From Trypanosoma brucei (Eukaryota), in the NCBI GenBank assembly GCA_000002445.1, contig CP000069.1, positions 1,312,001 to 1,376,000 of the forward strand: a stretch of DNA of 64,000 nucleotides, in the 5' to 3' direction. Position numbers and translations under genes: made by a program. The notes beneath the pieces were generated by a model, which had not been told where the DNA came from, ran no database searches, and saw nothing but the letters and a program-made list of their open reading frames with translations. Positions 5,301 to 51,664 of the stretch are shown here, piece by piece; positions within the stretch are counted from its first letter, which is position 1; every line of letters begins with the position of its first letter.

Positions 5301-5877
5301 GACGTGTTTGTAAGTATGCATGCATATGTTCACATGTGAGCTTACACGTGTGAGCGTATGCGGTGGTTTTGTTTTATTTTTCTTATTCCATGTACTGGTT
5401 GACACTGAGAGAGCATGTGGCCTCTTTCACCGTGCCTCTATATTCTTCCCTCGACCCACCCAAATCATCGTTTCTACTGCCCGTGTTTTGATGCTCTTTT
5501 TCTTGTTCCTGCATTCGCCGGGTTTCAGTCTCCAAACCTTTGCCGGGGGAACCAAGAGCCCATTGGTTTGAGCGCTGCTTAAGCATATAGATAGAGAGTT
5601 GAGTAGAAAAGAAGGACAACAGCAGCGGGTCGCGATATAGGAGATTATATAAACTCAAGTACGCACACACACGAATACATACACCGTCTCAGTTCGAAGG
5701 AGGCGGACAGTGGGGGAGGATTGAGAGAGTTGAGGGTAAAGACAAGGGATCACTGAGTGTGTGTGTGTGTGTGGACCGATAATAACAATAATAACAATAT
5801 TAAAGAATAAAGCAAAGAAAGAACAAACAGAAGGGCAGATTGATAAAAAATTAAAAGGAAGAAGGAGATAAGGAATC

Positions 5878-31696: not shown

Positions 31697-32593
31697 CGTG
31701 TACGCACCTTCCACATGTTCACTTTTGTATTTCGAGTGGAATAATGTCAAATAAAAACGAAACAAACTGAGGGGGGGGGGAAATAACTTGAAGCACGCAT
31801 TACGCCACGGCTTGGCGCGGCTATTCGGGTTGCCATTCACGGAATTAGTAAAATATTTAAATAATGCAGGAAAAACAAAACAAAAACACGCAGCTTCACT
31901 CTATGCATACCACAAAAGACGAACTCTTTTCTTTACTCACCGTTCTCAACTCAAAATAAAGAAAAAAAACACATGAAAAAGGCAGATATAAAAAAGGAAG
32001 CGCATGGACCCAATGGGGTCCCAACATTGGTATTAAAACCACTGTCAAACGACTATGTTGTCACCATCCGCTCCATGAAAGTAAAGCACTATTTACTTGT
32101 TCGTAAGAAAAAGTCAGTTATAAGGAAAAAACTAATCCACATGCAAATCTGTGGCGCACCGCGACATTATAACATTCGCAAAAAACACGATATGGAAAAA
32201 AACAATTAAGCAACAATATGAAACGGAGATATTATCGCAACATAACAGGAATCAAGTTTCTATCCGTCTCAAACCACTTCCACTCGCTTAAAAAAAGGTA
32301 GAAAACCAAAAAGGATATGGGTAAAGAAAAGAAATGAAATAAAATTAACACACAACAACGAAAACAAATAATAATAAATAAAATTAATGAAACAACAACA
32401 GCAAAAATGTAATGAAAAAAAAAAAATAAAAGTTTTCACCTTACTTTGCTCTTTTCCTCTCAATTCCTCTCCCTGTCGGATGTACCATTAGTTTAAAGCT
32501 ACTTCGCGTATACACCTCAGTGTACCCCTATTTCGTTTGCTCTACTCCGCAAGGTTCTACATCAATCCTACCGCCCTTGTTTCGTGAAAGGTG

Positions 32594-33787
32594 ATGTCCG
32601 TGCGCCAGATATTCTTCACGTCGGAGCATGTGAGTGAAGGTCACCCCGATAAACTATGCGATCAGGTGTCGGATGCCGTACTGGATGCATGCCTTGAGCA
32701 GGACCCGCTCTCTAAGGTTGCATGCGAGACGTGCTCAAAGACGGGGATGGTGCTTGTGTTTGGTGAGATCACAACGAAGGCTGTGATTGACTACCAGAAG
32801 GTCGTACGTGACACGGTTAAGGAGATCGGCTTCGATAACACTGAGAAGGGGTTGGACTACCGTTCACTGAACCTGCTTGTGGCCGTTGAGCAACAATCAC
32901 CCGATATTTACCAGGGCCTCGGTGACTTTGGCGGGGAGAACCTCGGTGCTGGAGACCAGGGCATGATGTTTGGTTATGCGACGAATGAGACGGAGACACT
33001 AATGCCACTCTCTTACGAACTTGCGCGCGGTCTTGCAATGACATACAGCGAGTTGCGACGCAATGGTGGTCTTCCGTGGGCGCGCCCCGACGCTAAGACG
33101 CAAGTGACAGTGCAGTACGAATATGACACCCGCGGTGGCAAGCAGTTGCTGACACCTAAGCGAGTGGCTGTGATTCTTGTTTCTGCCCAGCATGACGACG
33201 GTGTGTCAAATGAAACCATCCGCGAGGACCTGGTGAAGAAGGTAATCAGCACCACCATTCCCGCGAAGTTCCTCGATGAGAACACCAAATATCACTTGAA
33301 CCCATCTGGGCGTTTCGTCATCGGTGGCCCACATGGTGACGCTGGGTTAACTGGTCGCAAGATAATTGTTGACACGTATGGCGGTTGGGGTGCCCATGGT
33401 GGTGGCGCGTTTTCTGGCAAGGATCCCTCGAAGGTGGACCGGTCGGCAGCGTATGCTGCTCGCTGGATTGCGAAGTCTCTGGTGGCCGCAGGTCTTGCAG
33501 ATCGGTGCCTTGTACAACTTTCGTACGCCATTGGAGTTGCGGAACCGCTCAATATCCATGTCGACACATATGGCACTGGTAAGCGCGATGACGAGTATAT
33601 ATTGGGTATTGTGCAGAAAAACTTCCGACTGCGCCCGTACGACATAATCAAGGAACTTGATCTTCGTCGGCCGATATACCGCCAGACTGCCTGTTTCGGG
33701 CACTTTGGGCGTGTGGACACGAACGGGAAGGGAGGATTCACGTGGGAGGTGCCCAAAACACTAGAGGGTCTTAGTGACGTGCAGTAG
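32594..33787 (+). CDS. METK1: S-adenosylmethionine synthetase (methionine adenosyltransferase), array copy 1 of 9
   Basis: ATG 32594 (the ORF-track GTG 32591 is one codon upstream). MAT signatures are present: [76 protein letters not shown] and AYGHFGR-like CFGHFGR. It is very close to human MAT2A over its length. Confidence 0.92.
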
Positions 33788-34504
33788 TGTGTACTGCGCA
33801 CGAATAATCAGGCACACCTCCTTGCCCATCCTCACTGTTTGCGAGTAACTGCTCGCTTCCCGCCGAGTGGGTTCCTGTTGGTAACAACACCCGCCTTCGC
33901 TTATTTTTCGTTGTTACGTGATGTCATGTACTTGGCGATGTTGTGCATAAGGGAGTGGAGTAAGTAATAACAGTAGACAGGAGGTGGACGTTGCAATTAA
34001 ATTGTTTGACAAGTGTGAGGGTAGAGGGGGAAAGAATATATATATATATATATATATAACATATACCTATTTATTATTTTTAGGTATGCTATTTCGTACA
34101 CTAACGCTGTACTTTAATTCCTGGTATTTCCCACATATTGTTTCTCGGATGCGGTTTGCTCCTCATTCTTTACCTTTTTTGTTTTCTTTCGTTTTTACTC
34201 CATCATATGTTACCTTGACTGTAAACGTGTTGTTGTAAGTACTGTGACCTGTTAGCGTTACGTTTCAACTTTTTTCCCCTGCCTTACTGGGAGGTAAGTG
34301 TGATAACGACAGCAAGTGGGTACCATTATGATTGTAATTGTAAGAAATATTATTTCTGTTACATCAACCTTTGTCATTTAACTGTCACTCACGTATGGTA
34401 AGTCCTACGGTCTGTCGCCGGGGCTTTGCTTACCGTTCGTTGCTCTATCCGCTGCTGCGCACATGTAGTGAAGTACCTCGTTGTAACTGTAGTAAATAGC
34501 TAAT

Positions 34505-34604
34505 CTCCTATGTCTCCTTATTATTGTCCTTCTTTCTTCTCTTCTCTTTTGTTTTTTTTTTACCCTCAATTCCTCTCCCTGTCGGATGTACCATTAGTTT
34601 AAAG
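34505..34604 (+). promoter_or_regulatory. Polypyrimidine tract plus AG dinucleotides, a probable spliced-leader trans-splice acceptor region for the downstream METK copy. The same element recurs about 100-200 nt upstream of every array copy.
   Basis: An 85-nt run that is almost all C/T (ctcctatgtctccttattattgtccttctttcttctcttctcttttgttttttttttaccctcaattcctctccctgtcgg) is followed by AG at about 34596 and 34603, roughly 100 nt before ATG 34700. The general mechanism is established for kinetoplastids. The exact site is inferred. Confidence 0.45.
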
Positions 34605-34699
34605 CTACTTCGCGTATACACCTCAGTGTACCCCTATTTCGTTTGCTCTACTCCGCAAGGTTCTACATCAATCCTACCGCCCTTGTTTCGTGAAAGGTG

Positions 34700-35893
34700 A
34701 TGTCCGTGCGCCAGATATTCTTCACGTCGGAGCATGTGAGTGAAGGTCACCCCGATAAACTATGCGATCAGGTGTCGGATGCCGTACTGGATGCATGCCT
34801 TGAGCAGGACCCGCTCTCTAAGGTTGCATGCGAGACGTGCTCAAAGACGGGGATGGTGCTTGTGTTTGGTGAGATCACAACGAAGGCTGTGATTGACTAC
34901 CAGAAGGTCGTACGTGACACGGTTAAGGAGATCGGCTTCGATAACACTGAGAAGGGGTTGGACTACCGTTCACTGAACCTGCTTGTGGCCGTTGAGCAAC
35001 AATCACCCGATATTTACCAGGGCCTCGGTGACTTTGGCGGGGAGAACCTCGGTGCTGGAGACCAGGGCATGATGTTTGGTTATGCGACGAATGAGACGGA
35101 GACACTAATGCCACTCTCTTACGAACTTGCGCGCGGTCTTGCAATGACATACAGCGAGTTGCGACGCAATGGTGGTCTTCCGTGGGCGCGCCCCGACGCT
35201 AAGACGCAAGTGACAGTGCAGTACGAATATGACACCCGCGGTGGCAAGCAGTTGCTGACACCTAAGCGAGTGGCTGTGATTCTTGTTTCTGCCCAGCATG
35301 ACGACGGTGTGTCAAATGAAACCATCCGCGAGGACCTGGTGAAGAAGGTAATCAGCACCACCATTCCCGCGAAGTTCCTCGATGAGAACACCAAATATCA
35401 CTTGAACCCATCTGGGCGTTTTGTCATCGGTGGCCCACATGGTGACGCTGGGTTAACTGGTCGCAAGATAATTGTTGACACGTATGGCGGTTGGGGTGCC
35501 CATGGTGGTGGCGCGTTTTCTGGCAAGGATCCCTCGAAGGTGGACCGGTCGGCAGCGTATGCTGCTCGCTGGATTGCAAAGTCTCTGGTGGCCGCAGGTC
35601 TTGCAGATCGGTGCCTTGTACAACTTTCGTACGCCATTGGAGTTGCGGAACCGCTCAATATCCATGTCGACACATATGGCACTGGTAAGCGCGATGACGA
35701 GTATATATTGGGTATTGTGCAGAAAAACTTCCGACTGCGCCCGTACGACATAATCAAGGAACTTGATCTTCGTCGGCCGATATACCGCCAGACTGCCTGT
35801 TTCGGGCACTTTGGGCGTGTGGACACGAACGGGAAGGGAGGATTCACGTGGGAGGTGCCCAAAACACTAGAGGGTCTTAGTGACGTGCAGTAG
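34700..35893 (+). CDS. METK1: S-adenosylmethionine synthetase, array copy 2; carries two copy-specific synonymous changes (near 35421 and 35577)
   Basis: Identical translation to copy 1. The differences were seen by aligning the repeat units by eye. Confidence 0.92.
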
Positions 35894-36805
35894 TGTGTAC
35901 TGCGCACGAATAATCAGGCACACCTCCTTGCCCATCCTCACTGTTTGCGAGTAACTGCTCGCTTCCCGCCGAGTGGGTTCCTGTTGGTAACAACACCCGC
36001 CTTCGCTTATTTTTCGTTGTTACGTGATGTCATGTACTTGGCGATGTTGTGCATAAGGGAGTGGAGTAAGTAATAACAGTAGACAGGAGGTGGACGTTGC
36101 AATTAAATTGTTTGACAAGTGTGAGGGTAGAGGGGGAAAGAATATATATATATATATATATAACATATACCTATTTATTATTTTTAGGTATGCTATTTCG
36201 TACACTAACGCTGTACTTTAATTCCTGGTATTTCCCACATATTGTTTCTCGGATGCGGTTTGCTCCTCATTCTTTACCTTTTTTGTTTTCTTTCGTTTTT
36301 ACTCCATCATATGTTACCTTGACTGTAAACGTGTTGTTGTAAGTACTGTGACCTGTTAGCGTTACGTTTCAACTTTTTTCCCCTGCCTTACTGGGAGGTA
36401 AGTGTGATAACGACAGCAAGTGGGTACCATTATGATTGTAATTGTAAGAAATATTATTTCTGTTACATCAACCTTTGTCATTTAACTGTCACTCACGTAT
36501 GGTAAGTCCTACGGTCTGTCGCCGGGGCTTTGCTTACCGTTCGTTGCTCTATCCGCTGCTGCGCACATGTGGTGAAGTACCTCGTTGTAACTGTAGTAAA
36601 TAGCTAATCTCCTATGTCTCCTTATTATTGTCCTTCTTTCTTCTCTTCTCTTTTGTTTTTTTTTTTTACCCTCAATTCCTCTCCCTGTCGGATGTACCAT
36701 TAGTTTAAAGCTACTTCGCGTATACACCTCAGTGTACCCCTATTTCGTTTGCTCTACTCCGCAAGGTTCTACATCAATCCTACCGCCCTTGTTTCGTGAA
36801 AGGTG

Positions 36806-37999
36806 ATGTCCGTGCGCCAGATATTCTTCACGTCGGAGCATGTGAGTGAAGGTCACCCCGATAAACTATGCGATCAGGTGTCGGATGCCGTACTGGATGC
36901 ATGCCTTGAGCAGGACCCGCTCTCTAAGGTTGCATGCGAGACGTGCTCAAAGACGGGGATGGTGCTTGTGTTTGGTGAGATCACAACGAAGGCTGTGATT
37001 GACTACCAGAAGGTCGTACGTGACACGGTTAAGGAGATCGGCTTCGATAACACTGAGAAGGGGTTGGACTACCGTTCACTGAACCTGCTTGTGGCCGTTG
37101 AGCAACAATCACCCGATATTTACCAGGGCCTCGGTGACTTTGGCGGGGAGAACCTCGGTGCTGGAGACCAGGGCATGATGTTTGGTTATGCGACGAATGA
37201 GACGGAGACACTAATGCCACTCTCTTACGAACTTGCGCGCGGTCTTGCAATGACATACAGCGAGTTGCGACGCAATGGTGGTCTTCCGTGGGCGCGCCCC
37301 GACGCTAAGACGCAAGTGACAGTGCAGTACGAATATGACACCCGCGGTGGCAAGCAGTTGCTGACACCTAAGCGAGTGGCTGTGATTCTTGTTTCTGCCC
37401 AGCATGACGACGGTGTGTCAAATGAAACCATCCGCGAGGACCTGGTGAAGAAGGTAATCAGCACCACCATTCCCGCGAAGTTCCTCGATGAGAACACCAA
37501 ATATCACTTGAACCCATCTGGGCGTTTCGTCATCGGTGGCCCACATGGTGACGCTGGGTTAACTGGTCGCAAGATAATTGTCGACACGTATGGCGGTTGG
37601 GGTGCCCATGGTGGTGGCGCGTTTTCTGGCAAGGATCCCTCGAAGGTGGACCGGTCGGCAGCGTATGCTGCTCGCTGGATTGCGAAGTCTCTGGTGGCCG
37701 CAGGTCTTGCAGATCGGTGCCTTGTACAACTTTCGTACGCCATTGGAGTTGCGGAACCGCTCAATATCCATGTCGACACATATGGCACTGGTAAGCGCGA
37801 TGACGAGTATATATTGGGTATTGTGCAGAAAAACTTCCGACTGCGCCCGTACGACATAATCAAGGAACTTGATCTTCGTCGGCCGATATACCGCCAGACT
37901 GCCTGTTTCGGGCACTTTGGGCGTGTGGACACGAACGGGAAGGGAGGATTCACGTGGGAGGTGCCCAAAACACTAGAGGGTCTTAGTGACGTGCAGTAG
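36806..37999 (+). CDS. METK1: S-adenosylmethionine synthetase, array copy 3; has a synonymous GTT>GTC change (attgtcgacacg) shared with copy 5
   Basis: Identical translation to copy 1. Confidence 0.92.
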
Positions 38000-38909
38000 T
38001 GTGTACTGCGCACGAATAATCAGGCACACCTCCTTGCCCATCCTCACTGTTTGCGAGTAACTGCTCGCTTCCCGCCGAGTGGGTTCCTGTTGGTAACAAC
38101 ACCCGCCTTCGCTTATTTTTCGTTGTTACGTGATGTCATGTACTTGGCGATGTTGTGCATAAGGGAGTGGAGTAAGTAATAACAGTAGACAGGAGGTGGA
38201 CGTTGCAATTAAATTGTTTGACAAGTGTGAGGGTAGAGGGGGAAAGAATATATATATATATATATAACATATACCTATTTATTATTTTTAGGTATGCTAT
38301 TTCGTACACTAACGCTGTACTTTAATTCCTGGTATTTCCCACATATTGTTTCTCGGATGCGGTTTGCTCCTCATTCTTTACCTTTTTTGTTTTCTTTCGT
38401 TTTTACTCCATCATATGTTACCTTGACTGTAAACGTGTTGTTGTAAGTACTGTGACCTGTTAGCGTTACGTTTCAACTTTTTTCCCCTGCCTTACTGGGA
38501 GGTAAGTGTGATAACGACAGCAAGTGGGTACCATTATGATTGTAATTGTAAGAAATATTATTTCTGTTACATCAACCTTTGTCATTTAACTGTCACTCAC
38601 GTATGGTAAGTCCTACGGTCTGTCGCCGGGGCTTTGCTTACCGTTCGTTGCTCTATCCGCTGCTGCGCACATGTAGTGAAGTACCTCGTTGTAACTGTAG
38701 TAAATAGCTAATCTCCTATGTCTCCTTATTATTGTCCTTCTTTCTTCTCTTCTCTTTTGTTTTTTTTTTTTACCCTCAATTCCTCTCCCTGTCGGATGTA
38801 CCATTAGTTTAAAGCTACTTCGCGTATACACCTCAGTGTACCCCTATTTCGTTTGCTCTACTCCGCAAGGTTCTACATCAATCCTACCGCCCTTGTTTCG
38901 TGAAAGGTG

Positions 38910-40103
38910 ATGTCCGTGCGCCAGATATTCTTCACGTCGGAGCATGTGAGTGAAGGTCACCCCGATAAACTATGCGATCAGGTGTCGGATGCCGTACTGG
39001 ATGCATGCCTTGAGCAGGACCCGCTCTCTAAGGTTGCATGCGAGACGTGCTCAAAGACGGGGATGGTGCTTGTGTTTGGTGAGATCACAACGAAGGCTGT
39101 GATTGACTACCAGAAGGTCGTACGTGACACGGTTAAGGAGATCGGCTTCGATAACACTGAGAAGGGGTTGGACTACCGTTCACTGAACCTGCTTGTGGCC
39201 GTTGAGCAACAATCACCCGATATTTACCAGGGCCTCGGTGACTTTGGCGGGGAGAACCTCGGTGCTGGAGACCAGGGCATGATGTTTGGTTATGCGACGA
39301 ATGAGACGGAGACACTAATGCCACTCTCTTACGAACTTGCGCGCGGTCTTGCAATGACATACAGCGAGTTGCGACGCAATGGTGGTCTTCCGTGGGCGCG
39401 CCCCGACGCTAAGACGCAAGTGACAGTGCAGTACGAATATGACACCCGCGGTGGCAAGCAGTTGCTGACACCTAAGCGAGTGGCTGTGATTCTTGTTTCT
39501 GCCCAGCTTGACGACGGTGTGTCAAATGAAACCATCCGCGAGGACCTGGTGAAGAAGGTAATCAGCACCACCATTCCCGCGAAGTTCCTCGATGAGAACA
39601 CCAAATATCACTTGAACCCATCTGGGCGTTTCGTCATCGGTGGCCCACATGGTGACGCTGGGTTAACTGGTCGCAAGATAATTGTTGACACGTATGGCGG
39701 TTGGGGTGCCCATGGTGGTGGCGCGTTTTCTGGCAAGGATCCCTCGAAGGTGGACCGGTCGGCAGCGTATGCTGCTCGCTGGATTGCGAAGTCTCTGGTG
39801 GCCGCAGGTCTTGCAGATCGGTGCCTTGTACAACTTTCGTACGCCATTGGAGTTGCGGAACCGCTCAATATCCATGTCGACACATATGGCACTGGTAAGC
39901 GCGATGACGAGTATATATTGGGTATTGTGCAGAAAAACTTCCGACTGCGCCCGTACGACATAATCAAGGAACTTGATCTTCGTCGGCCGATATACCGCCA
40001 GACTGCCTGTTTCGGGCACTTTGGGCGTGTGGACACGAACGGGAAGGGAGGATTCACGTGGGAGGTGCCCAAAACACTAGAGGGTCTTAGTGACGTGCAG
40101 TAG
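38910..40103 (+). CDS. METK1: S-adenosylmethionine synthetase, array copy 4; non-synonymous His>Leu in the conserved SAQ-H-DDGV motif (CAT>CTT at 39508)
   Basis: The translation reads SAQLDDGV instead of SAQHDDGV. The nucleotide context gcccagcttgacgac contrasts with gcccagcatgacgac in the other eight copies. Confidence 0.9.
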
Positions 40104-41015
40104 TGTGTACTGCGCACGAATAATCAGGCACACCTCCTTGCCCATCCTCACTGTTTGCGAGTAACTGCTCGCTTCCCGCCGAGTGGGTTCCTGTTGGTAA
40201 CAACACCCGCCTTCGCTTATTTTTCGTTGTTACGTGATGTCATGTACTTGGCGATGTTGTGCATAAGGGAGTGGAGTAAGTAATAACAGTAGACAGGAGG
40301 TGGACGTTGCAATTAAATTGTTTGACAAGTGTGAGGGTAGAGGGGGAAAGAATATATATATATATATATATAACATATACCTATTTATTATTTTTAGGTA
40401 TGCTATTTCGTACACTAACGCTGTACTTTAATTCCTGGTATTTCCCACATATTGTTTCTCGGATGCGGTTTGCTCCTCATTCTTTACCTTTTTTGTTTTC
40501 TTTCGTTTTTACTCCATCATATGTTACCTTGACTGTAAACGTGTTGTTGTAAGTACTGTGACCTGTTAGCGTTACGTTTCAACTTTTTTCCCCTGCCTTA
40601 CTGGGAGGTAAGTGTGATAACGACAGCAAGTGGGTACCATTATGATTGTAATTGTAAGAAATATTATTTCTGTTACATCAACCTTTGTCATTTAACTGTC
40701 ACTCACGTATGGTAAGTCCTACGGTCTGTCGCCGGGGCTTTGCTTACCGTTCGTTGCTCTATCCGCTGCTGCGCACATGTGGTGAAGTACCTCGTTGTAA
40801 CTGTAGTAAATAGCTAATCTCCTATGTCTCCTTATTATTGTCCTTCTTTCTTCTCTTCTCTTTTGTTTTTTTTTTTTACCCTCAATTCCTCTCCCTGTCG
40901 GATGTACCATTAGTTTAAAGCTACTTCGCGTATACACCTCAGTGTACCCCTATTTCGTTTGCTCTACTCCGCAAGGTTCTACATCAATCCTACCGCCCTT
41001 GTTTCGTGAAAGGTG

Positions 41016-42209
41016 ATGTCCGTGCGCCAGATATTCTTCACGTCGGAGCATGTGAGTGAAGGTCACCCCGATAAACTATGCGATCAGGTGTCGGATGCCG
41101 TACTGGATGCATGCCTTGAGCAGGACCCGCTCTCTAAGGTTGCATGCGAGACGTGCTCAAAGACGGGGATGGTGCTTGTGTTTGGTGAGATCACAACGAA
41201 GGCTGTGATTGACTACCAGAAGGTCGTACGTGACACGGTTAAGGAGATCGGCTTCGATAACACTGAGAAGGGGTTGGACTACCGTTCACTGAACCTGCTT
41301 GTGGCCGTTGAGCAGCAATCACCCGATATTTACCAGGGCCTCGGTGACTTTGGCGGGGAGAACCTCGGTGCTGGAGACCAGGGCATGATGTTTGGTTATG
41401 CGACGAATGAGACGGAGACACTAATGCCACTCTCTTACGAACTTGCGCGCGGTCTTGCAATGACATACAGCGAGTTGCGACGCAATGGTGGTCTTCCGTG
41501 GGCGCGCCCCGACGCTAAGACGCAAGTGACAGTGCAGTACGAATATGACACCCGCGGTGGCAAGCAGTTGCTGACACCTAAGCGAGTGGCTGTGATTCTT
41601 GTTTCTGCCCAGCATGACGACGGTGTGTCAAATGAAACCATCCGCGAGGACCTGGTGAAGAAGGTAATCAGCACCACCATTCCCGCGAAGTTCCTCGATG
41701 AGAACACCAAATATCACTTGAACCCATCTGGGCGTTTCGTCATCGGTGGCCCACATGGTGACGCTGGGTTAACTGGTCGCAAGATAATTGTCGACACGTA
41801 TGGCGGTTGGGGTGCCCATGGTGGTGGCGCGTTTTCTGGCAAGGATCCCTCGAAGGTGGACCGGTCGGCAGCGTATGCTGCTCGCTGGATTGCGAAGTCT
41901 CTGGTGGCCGCAGGTCTTGCAGATCGGTGCCTTGTACAACTTTCGTACGCCATTGGAGTTGCGGAACCGCTCAATATCCATGTCGACACATATGGCACTG
42001 GTAAGCGCGATGACGAGTATATATTGGGTATTGTGCAGAAAAACTTCCGACTGCGCCCGTACGACATAATCAAGGAACTTGATCTTCGTCGGCCGATATA
42101 CCGCCAGACTGCCTGTTTCGGGCACTTTGGGCGTGTGGACACGAACGGGAAGGGAGGATTCACGTGGGAGGTGCCCAAAACACTAGAGGGTCTTAGTGAC
42201 GTGCAGTAG
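41016..42209 (+). CDS. METK1: S-adenosylmethionine synthetase, array copy 5; synonymous CAA>CAG near 41313 and the GTT>GTC change shared with copy 3
   Basis: Identical translation to copy 1. Confidence 0.92.
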
Positions 42210-43121
42210 TGTGTACTGCGCACGAATAATCAGGCACACCTCCTTGCCCATCCTCACTGTTTGCGAGTAACTGCTCGCTTCCCGCCGAGTGGGTTCCTGT
42301 TGGTAACAACACCCGCCTTCGCTTATTTTTCGTTGTTACGTGATGTCATGTACTTGGCGATGTTGTGCATAAGGGAGTGGAGTAAGTAATAACAGTAGAC
42401 AGGAGGTGGACGTTGCAATTAAATTGTTTGACAAGTGTGAGGGTAGAGGGGGAAAGAATATATATATATATATATATAACATATACCTATTTATTATTTT
42501 TAGGTATGCTATTTCGTACACTAACGCTGTACTTTAATTCCTGGTATTTCCCACATATTGTTTCTCGGATGCGGTTTGCTCCTCATTCTTTACCTTTTTT
42601 GTTTTCTTTCGTTTTTACTCCATCATATGTTACCTTGACTGTAAACGTGTTGTTGTAAGTACTGTGACCTGTTAGCGTTACGTTTCAACTTTTTTCCCCT
42701 GCCTTACTGGGAGGTAAGTGTGATAACGACAGCAAGTGGGTACCATTATGATTGTAATTGTAAGAAATATTATTTCTGTTACATCAACCTTTGTCATTTA
42801 ACTGTCACTCACGTATGGTAAGTCCTACGGTCTGTCGCCGGGGCTTTGCTTACCGTTCGTTGCTCTATCCGCTGCTGCGCACATGTAGTGAAGTACCTCG
42901 TTGTAACTGTAGTAAATAGCTAATCTCCTATGTCTCCTTATTATTGTCCTTCTTTCTTCTCTTCTCTTTTGTTTTTTTTTTTTACCCTCAATTCCTCTCC
43001 CTGTCGGATGTACCATTAGTTTAAAGCTACTTCGCGTATACACCTCAGTGTACCCCTATTTCGTTTGCTCTACTCCGCAAGGTTCTACATCAATCCTACC
43101 GCCCTTGTTTCGTGAAAGGTG

Positions 43122-44315
43122 ATGTCCGTGCGCCAGATATTCTTCACGTCGGAGCATGTGAGTGAAGGTCACCCCGATAAACTATGCGATCAGGTGTCGG
43201 ATGCCGTACTGGATGCATGCCTTGAGCAGGACCCGCTCTCTAAGGTTGCATGCGAGACGTGCTCAAAGACGGGGATGGTGCTTGTGTTTGGTGAGATCAC
43301 AACGAAGGCTGTGATTGACTACCAGAAGGTCGTACGTGACACGGTTAAGGAGATCGGCTTCGATAACACTGAGAAGGGGTTGGACTACCGTTCACTGAAC
43401 CTGCTTGTGGCCGTTGAGCAACAATCACCCGATATTTACCAGGGCCTCGGTGACTTTGGCGGGGAGAACCTCGGTGCTGGAGACCAGGGCATGATGTTTG
43501 GTTATGCGACGAATGAGACGGAGACACTAATGCCACTCTCTTACGAACTTGCGCGCGGTCTTGCAATGACATACAGCGAGTTGCGACGCAATGGTGGTCT
43601 TCCGTGGGCGCGCCCCGACGCTAAGACGCAAGTGACAGTGCAGTACGAATATGACACCCGCGGTGGCAAGCAGTTGCTGACACCTAAGCGAGTGGCTGTG
43701 ATTCTTGTTTCTGCCCAGCATGACGACGGTGTGTCAAATGGAACCATCCGCGAGGACCTGGTGAAGAAGGTAATCAGCACCACCATTCCCGCGAAGTTCC
43801 TCGATGAGAACACCAAATATCACTTGAACCCATCTGGGCGTTTCGTCATCGGTGGCCCACATGGTGACGCTGGGTTAACTGGTCGCAAGATAATTGTTGA
43901 CACGTATGGCGGTTGGGGTGCCCATGGTGGTGGCGCGTTTTCTGGCAAGGATCCCTCGAAGGTGGACCGGTCGGCAGCGTATGCTGCTCGCTGGATTGCG
44001 AAGTCTCTGGTGGCCGCAGGTCTTGCAGATCGGTGCCTTGTACAACTTTCGTACGCCATTGGAGTTGCGGAACCGCTCAATATCCATGTCGACACATATG
44101 GCACTGGTAAGCGCGATGACGAGTATATATTGGGTATTGTGCAGAAAAACTTCCGACTGCGCCCGTACGACATAATCAAGGAACTTGATCTTCGTCGGCC
44201 GATATACCGCCAGACTGCCTGTTTCGGGCACTTTGGGCGTGTGGACACGAACGGGAAGGGAGGATTCACGTGGGAGGTGCCCAAAACACTAGAGGGTCTT
44301 AGTGACGTGCAGTAG
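43122..44315 (+). CDS. METK1: S-adenosylmethionine synthetase, array copy 6; non-synonymous Glu>Gly (GAA>GGA at 43741, SNETIRED>SNGTIRED)
   Basis: Translation difference seen in the ORF track, and the nucleotide difference (tcaaatggaacc versus tcaaatgaaacc) seen in the sequence. Confidence 0.9.
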
Positions 44316-45226
44316 TGTGTACTGCGCACGAATAATCAGGCACACCTCCTTGCCCATCCTCACTGTTTGCGAGTAACTGCTCGCTTCCCGCCGAGTGGGT
44401 TCCTGTTGGTAACAACACCCGCCTTCGCTTATTTTTCGTTGTTACGTGATGTCATGTACTTGGCGATGTTGTGCATAAGGGAGTGGAGTAAGTAATAACA
44501 GTAGACAGGAGGTGGACGTTGCAATTAAATTGTTTGACAAGTGTGAGGGTAGAGGGGGAAAGAATATATATATATATATATATAACATATACCTATTTAT
44601 TATTTTTAGGTATGCTATTTCGTACACTAACGCTGTACTTTAATTCCTGGTATTTCCCACATATTGTTTCTCGGATGCGGTTTGCTCCTCATTCTTTACC
44701 TTTTTTGTTTTCTTTCGTTTTTACTCCATCATATGTTACCTTGACTGTAAACGTGTTGTTGTAAGTACTGTGACCTGTTAGCGTTACGTTTCAACTTTTT
44801 TCCCCTGCCTTACTGGGAGGTAAGTGTGATAACGACAGCAAGTGGGTACCATTATGATTGTAATTGTAAGAAATATTATTTCTGTTACATCAACCTTTGT
44901 CATTTAACTGTCACTCACGTATGGTAAGTCCTACGGTCTGTCGCCGGGGCTTTGCTTACCGTTCGTTGCTCTATCCGCTGCTGCGCACATGTGGTGAAGT
45001 ACCTCGTTGTAACTGTAGTAAATAGCTAATCTCCTATGTCTCCTTATTATTGTCCTTCTTTCTTCTCTTCTCTTTTGTTTTTTTTTTTACCCTCAATTCC
45101 TCTCCCTGTCGGATGTACCATTAGTTTAAAGCTACTTCGCGTATACACCTCAGTGTACCCCTATTTCGTTTGCTCTACTCCGCAAGGTTCTACATCAATC
45201 CTACCGCCCTTGTTTCGTGAAAGGTG

Positions 45227-46420
45227 ATGTCCGTGCGCCAGATATTCTTCACGTCGGAGCATGTGAGTGAAGGTCACCCCGATAAACTATGCGATCAGGT
45301 GTCGGATGCCGTACTGGATGCATGCCTTGAGCAGGACCCGCTCTCTAAGGTTGCATGCGAGACGTGCTCAAAGACGGGGATGGTGCTTGTGTTTGGTGAG
45401 ATCACAACGAAGGCTGTGATTGACTACCAGAAGGTCGTACGTGACACGGTTAAGGAGATCGGCTTCGATAACACTGAGAAGGGGTTGGACTACCGTTCAC
45501 TGAACCTGCTTGTGGCCGTTGAGCAACAATCACCCGATATTTACCAGGGCCTCGGTGACTTTGGCGGGGAGAACCTCGGTGCTGGAGACCAGGGCATGAT
45601 GTTTGGTTATGCGACGAATGAGACGGAGACACTAATGCCACTCTCTTACGAACTTGCGCGCGGTCTTGCAATGACATACAGCGAGTTGCGACGCAATGGT
45701 GGTCTTCCGTGGGCGCGCCCCGACGCTAAGACGCAAGTGACAGTGCAGTACGAATATGACACCCGCGGTGGCAAGCAGTTGCTGACACCTAAGCGAGTGG
45801 CTGTGATTCTTGTTTCTGCCCAGCATGACGACGGTGTGTCAAATGAAACCATCCGCGAGGACCTGGTGAAGAAGGTAATCAGCACCACCATTCCCGCGAA
45901 GTTCCTCGATGAGAACACCAAATATCACTTGAACCCATCTGGGCGTTTCGTCATCGGTGGCCCACATGGTGACGCTGGGTTAACTGGTCGCAAGATAATT
46001 GTTGACACGTATGGCGGTTGGGGTGCCCATGGTGGTGGCGCGTTTTCTGGCAAGGATCCCTCGAAGGTGGACCGGTCGGCAGCGTATGCTGCTCGCTGGA
46101 TTGCGAAGTCTCTGGTGGCCGCAGGTCTTGCAGATCGGTGCCTTGTACAACTTTCGTACGCCATTGGAGTTGCGGAACCGCTCAATATCCATGTCGACAC
46201 ATATGGCACTGGTAAGCGCGATGACGAGTATATATTGGGTATTGTGCAGAAAAACTTCCGACTGCGCCCGTACGACATAATCAAGGAACTTGATCTTCGT
46301 CGGCCGATATACCGCCAGACTGCCTGTTTCGGGCACTTTGGGCGTGTGGACACGAACGGGAAGGGAGGATTCACGTGGGAGGTGCCCAAAACACTAGAGG
46401 GTCTTAGTGACGTGCAGTAG
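45227..46420 (+). CDS. METK1: S-adenosylmethionine synthetase, array copy 7
   Basis: Identical translation to copy 1. Confidence 0.92.
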
Positions 46421-47330
46421 TGTGTACTGCGCACGAATAATCAGGCACACCTCCTTGCCCATCCTCACTGTTTGCGAGTAACTGCTCGCTTCCCGCCGAG
46501 TGGGTTCCTGTTGGTAACAACACCCGCCTTCGCTTATTTTTCGTTGTTACGTGATGTCATGTACTTGGCGATGTTGTGCATAAGGGAGTGGAGTAAGTAA
46601 TAACAGTAGACAGGAGGTGGACGTTGCAATTAAATTGTTTGACAAGTGTGAGGGTAGAGGGGGAAAGAATATATATATATATATATAACATATACCTATT
46701 TATTATTTTTAGGTATGCTATTTCGTACACTAACGCTGTACTTTAATTCCTGGTATTTCCCACATATTGTTTCTCGGATGCGGTTTGCTCCTCATTCTTT
46801 ACCTTTTTTGTTTTCTTTCGTTTTTACTCCATCATATGTTACCTTGACTGTAAACGTGTTGTTGTAAGTACTGTGACCTGTTAGCGTTACGTTTCAACTT
46901 TTTTCCCCTGCCTTACTGGGAGGTAAGTGTGATAACGACAGCAAGTGGGTACCATTATGATTGTAATTGTAAGAAATATTATTTCTGTTACATCAACCTT
47001 TGTCATTTAACTGTCACTCACGTATGGTAAGTCCTACGGTCTGTCGCCGGGGCTTTGCTTACCGTTCGTTGCTCTATCCGCTGCTGCGCACATGTGGTGA
47101 AGTACCTCGTTGTAACTGTAGTAAATAGCTAATCTCCTATGTCTCCTTATTATTGTCCTTCTTTCTTCTCTTCTCTTTTGTTTTTTTTTTTTACCCTCAA
47201 TTCCTCTCCCTGTCGGATGTACCATTAGTTTAAAGCTACTTCGCGTATACACCTCAGTGTACCCCTATTTCGTTTGCTCTACTCCGCAAGGTTCTACATC
47301 AATCCTACCGCCCTTGTTTCGTGAAAGGTG

Positions 47331-48524
47331 ATGTCCGTGCGCCAGATATTCTTCACGTCGGAGCATGTGAGTGAAGGTCACCCCGATAAACTATGCGATC
47401 AGGTGTCGGATGCCGTACTGGATGCATGCCTTGAGCAGGACCCGCTCTCTAAGGTTGCATGCGAGACGTGCTCAAAGACGGGGATGGTGCTTGTGTTTGG
47501 TGAGATCACAACGAAGGCTGTGATTGACTACCAGAAGGTCGTACGTGACACGGTTAAGGAGATCGGCTTCGATAACACTGAGAAGGGGTTGGACTACCGT
47601 TCACTGAACCTGCTTGTGGCCGTTGAGCAACAATCACCCGATATTTACCAGGGCCTCGGTGACTTTGGCGGGGAGAACCTCGGTGCTGGAGACCAGGGCA
47701 TGATGTTTGGTTATGCGACGAATGAGACGGAGACACTAATGCCACTCTCTTACGAACTTGCGCGCGGTCTTGCAATGACATACAGCGAGTTGCGACGCAA
47801 TGGTGGTCTTCCGTGGGCGCGCCCCGACGCTAAGACGCAAGTGACAGTGCAGTACGAATATGACACCCGCGGTGGCAAGCAGTTGCTGACACCTAAGCGA
47901 GTGGCTGTGATTCTTGTTTCTGCCCAGCATGACGACGGTGTGTCAAATGAAACCATCCGCGAGGACCTGGTGAAGAAGGTAATCAGCACCACCATTCCCG
48001 CGAAGTTCCTCGATGAGAACACCAAATATCACTTGAACCCATCTGGGCGTTTCGTCATCGGTGGCCCACATGGTGACGCTGGGTTAACTGGTCGCAAGAT
48101 AATTGTTGACACGTATGGCGGTTGGGGTGCCCATGGTGGTGGCGCGTTTTCTGGCAAGGATCCCTCGAAGGTGGACCGGTCGGCAGCGTATGCTGCTCGC
48201 TGGATTGCGAAGTCTCTGGTGGCCGCAGGTCTTGCAGATCGGTGCCTTGTACAACTTTCGTACGCCATTGGAGTTGCGGAACCGCTCAATATCCATGTCG
48301 ACACATATGGCACTGGTAAGCGCGATGACGAGTATATATTGGGTATTGTGCAGAAAAACTTCCGACTGCGCCCGTACGACATAATCAAGGAACTTGATCT
48401 TCGTCGGCCGATATACCGCCAGACTGCCTGTTTCGGGCACTTTGGGCGTGTGGACACGAACGGGAAGGGAGGATTCACGTGGGAGGTGCCCAAAACACTA
48501 GAGGGTCTTAGTGACGTGCAGTAG
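47331..48524 (+). CDS. METK1: S-adenosylmethionine synthetase, array copy 8
   Basis: Identical translation to copy 1. Confidence 0.92.
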
Positions 48525-49434
48525 TGTGTACTGCGCACGAATAATCAGGCACACCTCCTTGCCCATCCTCACTGTTTGCGAGTAACTGCTCGCTTCCCGC
48601 CGAGTGGGTTCCTGTTGGTAACAACACCCGCCTTCGCTTATTTTTCGTTGTTACGTGATGTCATGTACTTGGCGATGTTGTGCATAAGGGAGTGGAGTAA
48701 GTAATAACAGTAGACAGGAGGTGGACGTTGCAATTAAATTGTTTGACAAGTGTGAGGGTAGAGGGGGAAAGAATATATATATATATATATAACATATACC
48801 TATTTATTATTTTTAGGTATGCTATTTCGTACACTAACGCTGTACTTTAATTCCTGGTATTTCCCACATATTGTTTCTCGGATGCGGTTTGCTCCTCATT
48901 CTTTACCTTTTTTGTTTTCTTTCGTTTTTACTCCATCATATGTTACCTTGACTGTAAACGTGTTGTTGTAAGTACTGTGACCTGTTAGCGTTACGTTTCA
49001 ACTTTTTTCCCCTGCCTTACTGGGAGGTAAGTGTGATAACGACAGCAAGTGGGTACCATTATGATTGTAATTGTAAGAAATATTATTTCTGTTACATCAA
49101 CCTTTGTCATTTAACTGTCACTCACGTATGGTAAGTCCTACGGTCTGTCGCCGGGGCTTTGCTTACCGTTCGTTGCTCTATCCGCTGCTGCGCACATGTA
49201 GTGAAGTACCTCGTTGTAACTGTAGTAAATAGCTAATCTCCTATGTCTCCTTATTATTGTCCTTCTTTCTTCTCATCTCTTTTGTTTTTTTTTTTTACCC
49301 TCAATTCCTCTCCCTGTCGGATGTACCATTAGTTTAAAGCTACTTCGCGTATACACCTCAGTGTACCCCTATTTCGTTTGCTCTACTCCGCAAGGTTCTA
49401 CATCAATCCTACCGCCCTTGTTTCGTGAAAGGTG

Positions 49435-50628
49435 ATGTCCGTGCGCCAGATATTCTTCACGTCGGAGCATGTGAGTGAAGGTCACCCCGATAAACTATGC
49501 GATCAGGTGTCGGATGCCGTACTGGATGCATGCCTTGAGCAGGACCCGCTCTCTAAGGTTGCATGCGAGACGTGCTCAAAGACGGGGATGGTGCTTGTGT
49601 TTGGTGAGATCACAACGAAGGCTGTGATTGACTACCAGAAGGTCGTACGTGACACGGTTAAGGAGATCGGCTTCGATAACACTGAGAAGGGGTTGGACTA
49701 CCGTTCACTGAACCTGCTTGTGGCCGTTGAGCAACAATCACCCGATATTTACCAGGGCCTCGGTGACTTTGGCGGGGAGAACCTCGGTGCTGGAGACCAG
49801 GGCATGATGTTTGGTTATGCGACGAATGAGACGGAGACACTAATGCCACTCTCTTACGAACTTGCGCGCGGTCTTGCAATGACATACAGCGAGTTGCGAC
49901 GCAATGGTGGTCTTCCGTGGGCGCGCCCCGACGCTAAGACGCAAGTGACAGTGCAGTACGAATATGACACCCGCGGTGGCAAGCAGTTGCTGACACCTAA
50001 GCGAGTGGCTGTGATTCTTGTTTCTGCCCAGCATGACGACGGTGTGTCAAATGAAACCATCCGCGAGGACCTGGTGAAGAAGGTAATCAGCACCACCATT
50101 CCCGCGAAGTTCCTCGATGAGAACACCAAATATCACTTGAACCCATCTGGGCGTTTCGTCATCGGTGGCCCACATGGTGACGCTGGGTTAACTGGTCGCA
50201 AGATAATTGTTGACACGTATGGCGGTTGGGGTGCCCATGGTGGTGGCGCGTTTTCTGGCAAGGATCCCTCGAAGGTGGACCGGTCGGCAGCGTATGCTGC
50301 TCGCTGGATTGCGAAGTCTCTGGTGGCCGCAGGTCTTGCAGATCGGTGCCTTGTACAACTTTCGTACGCCATTGGAGTTGCGGAACCGCTCAATATCCAT
50401 GTCGACACATATGGCACTGGTAAGCGCGATGACGAGTATATATTGGGTATTGTGCAGAAAAACTTCCGACTGCGCCCGTACGACATAATCAAGGAACTTG
50501 ATCTTCGTCGGCCGATATACCGCCAGACTGCCTGTTTCGGGCACTTTGGGCGTGTGGACACGAACGGGAAGGGAGGATTCACGTGGGAGGTGCCCAAAAC
50601 ACTAGAGGGTCTTAGTGACGTGCAGTAG
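49435..50628 (+). CDS. METK1: S-adenosylmethionine synthetase, array copy 9 (last); downstream sequence diverges from the repeat after ~50727
   Basis: Identical translation to copy 1. The 3' flank shares about 100 bp with the other units and then becomes unique AT-rich sequence with (TA)n tracts. Confidence 0.92.
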
Positions 50629-50920
50629 TGTGTACTGCGCACGAATAATCAGGCACACCTCCTTGCCCATCCTCACTGTTTGCGAGTAACTGCTCGCTTC
50701 CCGCCGAGTGGGTTCCTGTTGGTAACAACTTTATTTGTTATATAGGAGAGGGCATTGTTTTTTAAATTAATATTTTTTTTGTTAATATATATATATATAT
50801 ATATATATATTTTAAATTTTTTGTCTCTATGTTTTTTTTTCTGCTGTTATAATATATATATATATATATATGTATAATTTTTTTCTTTAAAAATTTTAGG
50901 GTTTTCGTTCTGCTGTTTTT

Positions 50921-51664
50921 ATGCTGGTTTCGTACTTGCGTCTGCAGGCAGACAGGCGCACAAGGCATCATATGATGGTTGATGGGCAAATAAATCCTCG
51001 CGAGTGGTTTAATTGGCATCCGAAAGAGTATCAGCCATGGTACTTTGATCGGCACAAATTTCTTTATGAGCAGCGGCAGTATGCACAGTTTCATCATTTA
51101 CTGTGTCACCAGGTGTATTTGAAAGATATGCTTCATCTCATGCGTTACCCAGAGCCTTATACTCATATTATCGACTGTCGTACGTCTACGCAAAAGATGC
51201 ATCGATGGGTTCCTCACAGTCTATGGTTACCTCGCGATGAGGTTGAATATGCTTTGCAGTTGAGTGCTGATGAATTTCTTGATATGTATGGGTTCAGGAA
51301 ACCAGACAAGTCAGATGATGTTATACTTTTGTCTCATAATGGAATTTACTCGGAGCAAGCCGGGTGGGAGTGGAAAAAGCAGTTTTTCCAACATGTGTAT
51401 AACTATCGTGGGGGGACTAACGAGTTGTTTGGTGAGTCTTATAGTGATATGAACGTTAGTGACGTGTTGTCTCCGTGGAAGGGCCCTTTTCCTCAGAGTG
51501 GAGTGTTTGTTGACAAGTGGAGCAAGAGGAAAGTGTTGACACGGACGGGACCGTTTGATCGTCAGTACGAGATGCAGGACTTTGCGTTGCCGGACCTTGA
51601 ACTGGAGAAGGCAAGGCATCCTGAAGAAGGTCCGCGGCAGAACATGCCTTTCGGTCTTCAGTGA
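50921..51664 (+). CDS. Rhodanese-like domain protein, 247 aa, predicted catalytically inactive (Ser in place of the active-site Cys)
   Basis: Real ATG at 50921. The rhodanese fold pattern is present (THIIDCRTSTQKMHRWVPHSLWLP ... DDVILLSHNGIYSEQAGWEWKK ... VYNYRGGTNELFG). The position normally occupied by the catalytic Cys in the CxxGxR loop reads LLSHNG. Confidence 0.5.
   Translation: MLVSYLRLQADRRTRHHMMVDGQINPREWFNWHPKEYQPWYFDRHKFLYEQRQYAQFHHLLCHQVYLKDMLHLMRYPEPYTHIIDCRTSTQKMHRWVPHSLWLPRDEVEYALQLSADEFLDMYGFRKPDKSDDVILLSHNGIYSEQAGWEWKKQFFQHVYNYRGGTNELFGESYSDMNVSDVLSPWKGPFPQSGVFVDKWSKRKVLTRTGPFDRQYEMQDFALPDLELEKARHPEEGPRQNMPFGLQ

Follow-up and report, generated by a model that had tools for sequence, protein, structure and literature searches.

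The METK array of Trypanosoma brucei under ordinary concerted evolution, with a plausible but unproven local two-unit step

Two single-nucleotide variants alternate along part of a tandem gene array in Trypanosoma brucei. Do they record a higher-order repeat of two units (4.2 kb) inside the array, as an earlier note on this DNA proposed, or the ordinary turnover of near-identical copies? The array lies in the 64-kb window (the whole stretch of DNA that was analyzed) and is the published nine-copy array of METK (S-adenosylmethionine synthetase) on chromosome 6 of T. brucei TREU927, Tb927.6.4840-4920. Its proteins are identical to TREU927 entries AAZ12042-47, and the same locus is array Tb47 in the survey of Jackson 2007 (BMC Evol Biol 7:54; PMC1855330). 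Nine copies are also stated in PMC6221367, where activity of the enzyme (TbAdoMetSyn) is reported. Precomputed Pfam matches for the N-terminal, central and C-terminal MAT domains (PF00438/PF02772/PF02773) cover the full length of P0001, a protein one residue different from the array METK, and 7950 homologues were found at E<=1e-100.

We delimited the array by lag identity and open reading frames (ORFs). It is 18.3 kb long and comprises nine coding sequences and eight full spacers, with a unit of 2104-2106 bp:

32459..50729 (about), + strand: METK array, nine copies head-to-tail (lag self-identity at 2104-2106 and homology limits)
32594..33787, + strand: METK copy 1 coding sequence, 397 aa (ORF list, translation, Pfam on the near-identical P0001)
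34700-35893, 36806-37999, 38910-40103 and 41016-42209, + strand: coding sequences of METK copies 2-5 (ORF list)
43122-44315, 45227-46420, 47331-48524 and 49435-50628, + strand: coding sequences of METK copies 6-9 (ORF list)

Spacer comparisons were made on units 1-8, leaving out the non-homologous 0.9 kb 3' of copy 9. Tandem Repeats Finder, with a maximum period of 500 bp, reported no repeat for the array. The range considered in the earlier note, 34700-46420, begins at the ATG of copy 2 and ends with the stop codon of copy 7.

Both variants that had drawn attention were borne out by direct pattern searches. The spacer motif ACATGT[A/G]GTGAAGTACC has eight matches, one in each spacer (chance expectation 0), and the variable base in spacers 1-8 is, in order, A,G,A,G,A,G,G,A. 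The coding motif ATTGT[T/C]GACACG has nine matches, and the change to C, synonymous at codon 259 (GTT>GTC, Val>Val), is confined to copies 3 and 5:

36571 (spacer 2), 40781, 44993 and 47096, + strand: spacer A/G site with the derived G (pattern search; A in all other assemblies)
34467, 38675, 42887 and 49200, + strand: spacer A/G site with the ancestral A (pattern search)
37582 (copy 3) and 41792 (copy 5), + strand: derived synonymous C, always 3' of a G spacer (T in all other assemblies)

The two sites are ~1 kb apart and form one linked haplotype, and the phasing rests on exactly these two. Four units carry the ancestral A-T, two carry G-T and two carry G-C, whereas A-C is absent. With three of the four possible haplotypes present, the variants are nested, and no recombination has taken place between their sites. 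Along the array the haplotypes run a c a c a b b a (a, A-T; b, G-T; c, G-C).

The trans-splice acceptor follows the spacer A/G site at a distance of 131 nt, and the region is laid out in spacer 2 as follows:

36656-36667, + strand: poly-T tract of spacer 2 (10-12 T depending on the spacer)
36702-36703, + strand: trans-splice acceptor AG of spacer 2, 3' of the poly-T (poly-T-to-AG element 36656..36703)

The acceptor AG ends at 32491, 34597, 36703, 38807, 40913, 43019, 45124, 47228 and 49332 for copies 1-9, so that each of the nine + strand copies has a conserved acceptor upstream, as in other trypanosomatid tandem arrays. Two RNA-seq contigs of another strain, L006 and L008, join the 3' end of the spliced leader directly to TTTAAAGCTAC, and the METK 5' UTR is 102 nt. 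The spacer A/G site may be absent from the mature mRNA. The expectation that copy-specific transcripts can be told apart holds in principle for the coding variants (copies 2, 3/5, 4, 5 and 6), but perhaps not for this site.

Tabulation of the whole array (18.3 kb) gave eight SNP sites and two length-variable tracts. Six of the eight SNPs are singletons, leaving the two variants above as the only informative sites, and six of the eight are transitions. The singletons and the first (AT)n tract are:

35422 (C>T) and 35578 (G>A), + strand: singletons in copy 2
39508 (A>T), + strand: singleton in copy 4, H200L
41315 (A>G), + strand: singleton in copy 5
43741 (A>G), + strand: singleton in copy 6, E207G
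49275 (T>A), + strand: singleton in spacer 8
34036..34057, + strand: (AT)n tract 3' of the stop codon in spacer 1, 11 repeats

In spacers 2-8 the (AT)n tract starts at 36142, 38248, 40352, 42458, 44564, 46669 and 48773. Its repeat counts in spacers 1-8 are 11,10,9,10,10,10,9,9, and the poly-T lengths are 10,12,12,12,12,11,12,12. Across spacers 1-8 and the nine copies, a period of two is followed by none of the six singletons, nor by (AT)n or poly-T. We did not take the two tracts as decisive phylogenetic markers, since they mutate fast and are prone to read errors.

The two-unit higher-order repeat itself did not survive these comparisons: its period-2 signal is not significant, its blocks are not the closest pair and its alternation breaks. 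The segments and units compared were:

35894..40103, + strand: proposed block A (spacer 2, copy 3, spacer 3, copy 4)
40104..44315, + strand: proposed block B (spacer 4, copy 5, spacer 5, copy 6)
45078..49199, + strand: units 7 and 8, neighbors and the most alike of all pairs, with 0 SNP differences

The two blocks had been said to share the same structure. They do at the two shared sites, but they are otherwise three SNPs (39508, 41315, 43741) and one (AT) repeat apart. Block A, the second two-unit block along the array, is just as distant from blocks 4, 6 and 7 (3 SNPs and 1 indel in each case), and block pairs 5-6 and 6-7 are only 2 SNPs apart; in this comparison along the array, two-unit blocks are thus not each other's nearest relatives. 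Mean SNP differences are 2.71-3.0 at lag 1 versus 2.0-2.17 at lag 2. Exact permutation of the eight units gave P = 0.047-0.067 for SNPs and 0.11-0.17 with indels, so that adding tract lengths only lowers the period-2 signal. Alternation at the A/G site is equalled or surpassed in 8 of 70 arrangements (0.114), and the three-type haplotype pattern has a permutation P of 0.12. Overall, with P 0.05-0.2, the signal for a period of two falls short of significance. The informative sites do not all keep the period along the array: alternation holds through spacer 6, after which spacers 6-8 read G,G,A. In addition, (AT)n is out of phase, with 9 repeats in spacer 3 versus 10 in spacer 5. The longest exact repeat (2018 bp) is found at lag 2104 (45078-47095 = 47182-49199), and at lag 4210 no exact match is longer than 1526 bp (35579-37104 vs 39789-41314). 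The 2018-bp repeat of units 7 and 8 points to a probable one-unit duplication or homogenization. The array is therefore one without higher-order organization, bearing at most the trace of one or two local two-unit events, and the two phased variants are weak evidence for a two-gene duplication step.

What the array does show is ordinary concerted evolution. Every unit of four other assemblies or contigs has the majority state at all eight SNP sites, which marks the minor alleles as derived; Logan contigs from other samples represent mRNA or collapsed units, in which minor variants are not visible. All nine TREU927 copies are distinct at unit positions 600 and 656 (S219/N219) from every unit of L001, DAL972 and ERR034315. 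At positions 1956 and 1958 the eight TREU927 spacers agree with L001, and all of them are distinct from DAL972 and ERR034315. Strain differences such as S219 versus N219 are thus fixed in all nine copies, which indicates efficient homogenization. Copies are more alike within the genome than between strains, with eight SNP sites in 18 kb within TREU927, and the flanks of the array diverge by 0.2-1.3% between strains.

How, then, could two derived alleles become interleaved on so uniform a background? The minimum number of events is six with mutation only, six when one-unit duplication and deletion are added, five with two-unit duplication and deletion, and five with gene conversion. The argument that two-unit duplication, and not independent mutation, explains the pattern thus stands against mutation but does not separate duplication from conversion. 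Likewise, a period-2 arrangement needs fewer changes than mutation only, but does not need the fewest, being tied with conversion. Variants cannot become interleaved through unequal exchange that is one unit out of register: in a toy simulation the observed pattern arose in 0 arrays under this process, and at least six transitions were never reached. Mixed registers gave the exact pattern with a probability of 0.006-0.011 in the same simulation, compared with 0.003 when conversion was independent of distance and 0.0003 when it was neighbor-biased. The likelihood advantage of mixed registers in this model is only ~2-4 fold and comes from 11-18 simulated hits with arbitrary rate choices.

We consider unequal sister-chromatid exchange in mixed registers, acting on a near-uniform array, the most likely history by a modest margin, with a probability of roughly 0.35. 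Recombination between repeats keeps the array almost uniform. On this background a few young, TREU927-specific mutations would have arisen, an A>G in one spacer first and later a T>C in a gene copy that follows a G spacer at a distance of ~1 kb. Both derived alleles would then have been passed to further units by recombination inside the array. One possible course begins with duplication of a G-spacer gene and an A-spacer gene as a two-unit block, followed by the T>C mutation; a second two-unit duplication could then have placed the G-C haplotype at copies 3 and 5, and a one-unit duplication could have produced the neighboring G spacers 6 and 7. The last step is consistent with units 7 and 8 being identical at SNPs and having the 2018-bp exact repeat in common. 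A local two-unit step in the array is therefore plausible but unproven. We infer both the two-unit steps and the correctness of the deposited unit order, and only tentatively hold that the interleaving of G-C and A-T is real and also records two-unit unequal exchange.

Gene conversion between non-adjacent units, with copy number unchanged, is the foremost alternative and only somewhat less likely. It would take one non-reciprocal transfer that moved G and C together on a tract of 1 kb or more, and two short transfers that moved only G. If conversion acts independently of distance, the order of the units is in effect random, and the alternation that is observed has a probability of ~0.11; the out-of-phase (AT)n and the absence of excess similarity between 4.2-kb blocks need no extra events. 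Conversion usually prefers neighboring repeats, however, and with such a bias the probability of the pattern in the toy model is 20-40 fold lower than under mixed-register exchange. Moreover, the absence of an A-C haplotype means that the two sites were never separated by conversion. Putative partial conversion is nonetheless reported in 21 of 47 T. brucei arrays (Jackson 2007, PMC1855330). Far less probable is a mosaic built by repeated meiotic crossovers between an all-A and an all-G haplotype array. T. brucei is sexual, and joins of a prefix to a suffix could in principle interleave variants, but the six transitions need about six crossovers in 18 kb with no homogenization meanwhile, and the G and C alleles are in none of the other assemblies examined. 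That the same two nucleotides mutated repeatedly and independently from unit to unit is a formal possibility, both changes being transitions. Four of the six events required would be recurrent identical hits, in an array with only eight variable sites in 18 kb, and C is found only behind G; parsimony and the linkage of the two variants led us to reject it, at odds we regard as negligible.

The remaining alternative, ranked just behind gene conversion, is that the alleles are real but that the data do not fix which unit carries which. G-type and A-type units could lie on different homologues, or finishing could have distributed reads among near-identical units. Reads of that era were under about 900 bp, and in addition to the 2018-bp repeat a 1596-bp stretch occurs three times. 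With exact repeats of 1.6-2.0 kb exceeding the assumed read length, the unit order rests on the assembly, that is, on clone mates or finishing decisions. G is present in 4 of 8 spacers (50%), as expected if it were fixed in one of two homologous arrays. Other assemblies render the array very differently, with one copy in L005, four in L001, six with two N gaps in L002/L003 and a single circular unit in L004. H200 of METK is invariant in 121 of 122 homologues, and the H200L change at this residue hints that some variants are clone or read errors. On the other side, chromosome 6 was presumably sequenced BAC by BAC, in which case one clone is one haplotype. Private markers (copies 2, 4, 5 and 6; spacers 1, 5, 6 and 8) would let 2-4 kb mate pairs order the units, a purely modelled array would show identical units, and the excess of transitions among the SNPs is as in real mutations. 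The 64-kb window holds no second repeat family to serve as an internal control for assembly noise. A literature search found no account of how the TREU927 chromosome 6 arrays were finished and no long-read TREU927 re-assembly resolving the array, but phased work on Lister 427 instead. Mis-assembly of reads from different copies is a known hazard of such arrays, and read vouchers were checked for chromosomes 9-11 only, not for chromosome 6 (Jackson 2007, PMC1855330).

Higher-order repeats such as primate alpha-satellite have a multi-unit block as the unit of duplication, so that variants recur every several units; their blocks are far more alike than adjacent monomers, and the period persists over many repeats. 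In the METK array, by contrast, the advantage of lag 2 is 2.0 versus 2.7 SNPs (P 0.05-0.17), and the pattern involves two sites over at most three periods and then breaks. The alpha/beta-tubulin array of T. brucei (Tb3 in Jackson 2007) resembles the proposed two-gene repeat unit and is likewise read in a polycistron, but its unit is two different genes, whereas the METK 'sub-units' are the same gene, 1-2 nucleotides apart. The METK array is itself among the 'invariant' arrays of the same survey: coding and intergenic sequence are near-identical throughout, silent changes occur now and then, simple-sequence tracts vary, terminal homology is curtailed and strain differences are fixed in all copies. 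In that survey, homogeneity was ascribed to unequal crossing-over, with coding sequences identical save very occasional silent changes (PMC1855330). The METK array departs from this description in that two copies carry amino-acid changes (H200L, E207G) and that the two shared variants lie interleaved, a pattern that one-unit unequal crossing-over cannot yield by itself.

The finding, in an array that was already described, matters little overall, and it is also a caution that fine structure in near-identical arrays of older references needs a long-read check before interpretation. If verified, the pattern would be a small data point for exchange in registers above one, or for conversion between non-neighbors, in array homogenization; two-unit exchange, if true, would mean that one-unit unequal crossing-over is not the sole process in 'invariant' arrays. 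With copy-specific coding SNPs, RNA-seq could distinguish some members of an array usually called 18 identical copies per diploid cell, and private coding variants, if true, could be natural barcodes for position-dependent expression along a polycistronic array.

Neither the METK array nor its mode of evolution is new: the locus has been reported as a nine-copy array (PMC6221367) and, as Tb47, is among the "invariant" arrays ascribed to unequal crossing-over (Jackson 2007, PMC1855330). Here a 397-aa ORF is present in nine copies, arranged head to tail on the + strand in units of 2104-2106 bp. Its homology limits are at ~32459 and ~50729 (window coordinates), that is, 132 identical bases before the copy 1 ORF start (GTG at 32591; ATG at 32594) and 101 identical bases past the copy 9 stop. 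The ORF encodes S-adenosylmethionine synthetase (7950 homologues at E<=1e-100), and domains PF00438, PF02772 and PF02773 were precomputed on a protein one residue different from its product. The majority protein is identical to a deposited TREU927 entry (AAZ12042 and others), and the copy 4 and copy 6 variants are identical to AAZ12045 and AAZ12047, also from TREU927, which places the window on chromosome 6 of T. brucei brucei TREU927, at genes Tb927.6.4840-4920. Within the coding sequence of every unit there are also two antisense ORFs, of 169 aa (33292-33801, - strand) and 118 aa (33347-33703, - strand); they recur solely through unit repetition, with no sign of being genes.

The nine coding sequences and eight spacers vary at just eight SNP sites and two length-variable tracts.

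Variable sites in the METK array (window coordinates)
35422, copy 2, C>T, silent, singleton
35578, copy 2, G>A, silent, singleton
39508, copy 4, A>T, H200L, singleton
41315, copy 5, A>G, silent, singleton
43741, copy 6, A>G, E207G, singleton
49275, spacer 8, T>A, singleton
37582 and 41792, copies 3 and 5, T>C, silent, shared (T/C site)
36571, 40781, 44993 and 47096, spacers 2, 4, 6 and 7, A>G, shared (A/G site)
(AT)n tract, spacers 1-8, 11,10,9,10,10,10,9,9 repeats
poly-T tract, spacers 1-8, lengths 10,12,12,12,12,11,12,12

Only the A/G and T/C sites carry SNPs common to more than one unit, the other six being singletons. The earlier note had read the A/G site along the spacers as A,G,A,G,A,G,G,A and confined the coding change to copies 3 and 5. 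Both readings are exact: the A/G motif occurs once per spacer, and C at the T/C motif (Val259, GTT>GTC) is found in no other copy. Two copies carry amino-acid changes, though the literature calls the array copies identical. Of 122 aligned homologues, 121 have His at residue 200 (Leu in copy 4) and 117 have E or D at residue 207 (Gly in copy 6). For each change the choice is between a recent, damaging mutation that redundancy makes tolerable and a clone or read error.

With the two shared sites ~1011 bp apart, the eight units (spacer plus downstream gene) fall into haplotypes A-T (a, four units), G-T (b, two) and G-C (c, two), and A-C is absent among them. The series A-T, G-T, G-C is therefore nested, without recombination, and its order along the array is a c a c a b b a. 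This phasing had been taken to suggest a two-unit (4.2-kb) higher-order repeat, but there is no such repeat array-wide. The block from spacer 2 to copy 4 differs from that from spacer 4 to copy 6 by three SNPs and one indel, the same distance as separates it from the two-unit blocks starting at spacers 6 and 7. The closest units are the adjacent 7 and 8 (no SNP differences). Exact repeats reach their greatest length, 2018 bp (45078/47182), at a lag of 2104; at lag 4210 the best is 1526 bp. The period-two signal itself falls short of significance, with exact permutation of the eight units giving P = 0.047-0.067 for SNPs and 0.11-0.17 with indels included. The alternation at the A/G site (six transitions) is equalled or surpassed in 8 of 70 arrangements (0.114), and the three-type pattern has P = 0.12.

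What survives of the two-unit interpretation is local. One or two two-unit exchange steps within the array would be a plausible and marginally favoured source of the pattern, with a probability of about 0.35. In a breadth-first search over array histories, mutation alone required at least 6 events, as did mutation with one-unit duplication or deletion, and adding two-unit steps lowered the minimum to 5. Independent mutation, which the earlier note had held would not give the pattern, is thus the worst account, and one-unit unequal exchange cannot produce the interleaving of variants. The two-unit history is not uniquely the most economical, however, as gene conversion between units, together with mutation, also reaches 5. 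A toy forward simulation with arbitrary rates and 4-18 hits per model modestly favoured the two-unit model: mixed one- and two-unit (and three-unit) exchange produced the exact pattern, counted in both orientations, with probability 0.006-0.011, versus 0.003 for distance-independent and 0.0003 for neighbour-biased conversion, and one-unit exchange alone never produced it. Conversion is a somewhat less probable source of the interleaving than the two-unit steps.

An assembly or haplotype artefact behind the unit order is about as probable as conversion, and has specific points in its favour. G occurs in exactly four of the eight spacers, as would also be expected if the site were fixed in the array of one homologue and the two haplotypes had been mixed. 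Reads of that sequencing era are assumed to be shorter than ~900 bp. One 1596-bp stretch occurs exactly three times and the 2018-bp stretch twice, both longer than such reads, so reads alone would have been insufficient for unit order, and the deposited order must rely on clone mates or on choices made in finishing. Jackson 2007 (PMC1855330) names as a hazard that reads of different copies are mis-assembled; read vouchers could be examined there for chromosomes 9-11 only. Copy number also varies with the assembly, others showing 1, 4 or 6. On the other hand, private markers on units would permit ordering, and a modelled array would be expected to be uniform, unlike the observed units.

Among these assemblies, T. 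equiperdum OVI has one METK copy (L005, 10001-11194) and GCA_003543875.1 has four (L001, 10001-17600), the fourth without a gene call. The ERR034315 Logan contig (L004; 2139 bp with a 30-bp end overlap) is a single circularised 2109-bp unit. In T. b. gambiense DAL972 (FN554969.1; L003, 4370-7894), the first copy is followed by ~0.5 kb (5696-6202) that looks like the terminal downstream flank, with 95.7% identity to window 50760-51271, and then by a 100-N gap; its two 100-N gaps and truncated gene calls make that array assembly unreliable.

In RNA-seq contigs from another strain (L006 and L008), the spliced-leader 3' end is joined directly to TTTAAAGCTAC, so the trans-splice acceptor AG falls at 36702-36703 and recurs at the matching position of all nine units. 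The poly-T tract precedes the acceptor by 34 nt, and the 5' UTR measures 102 nt. The A/G site precedes the acceptor by 131 nt, in a zone where polyadenylation sites coupled to a downstream acceptor usually lie, so it may not be present in mature mRNA. The coding variants, if real, would tell apart copies 2, 3/5, 4, 5 and 6. Ahead of copy 1 (32400-32491), the acceptor and ~30 nt upstream of it are kept, and in place of the T10-12 tract of internal spacers there is a shorter, different CT-rich stretch after an A-rich run; the trans-splicing efficiency of copy 1 may differ.

We compared the units with those of GCA_003543875.1 (four copies), DAL972 (L002/L003, six copies), ERR034315 and OVI (collapsed to one copy). 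Every unit of these four sources has the TREU927 majority state at all eight SNP sites, so the minor alleles are derived and, within this small sample, TREU927-specific. The four-copy array has private variation of its own (position 1405 is C in all three spacers, 1607 is C/G/G, and there are small poly-T indels); low-level between-unit variation is thus not peculiar to TREU927. The array flanks diverge by 0.2-1.3% between TREU927 and other strains. At unit positions 600 and 656, all TREU927 units differ from GCA_003543875.1, DAL972 and ERR034315, and at 1956 and 1958 from DAL972 and ERR034315 only. Position 656 (33249 in copy 1) gives Ser219 in all nine TREU927 copies and the single OVI copy, and Asn219 in DAL972, GCA_003543875.1, ERR034315 and the RNA-seq contigs, a strain-level difference homogenised over the whole array. 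Such between-strain differences, fixed across all TREU927 units, are the signature of concerted evolution.
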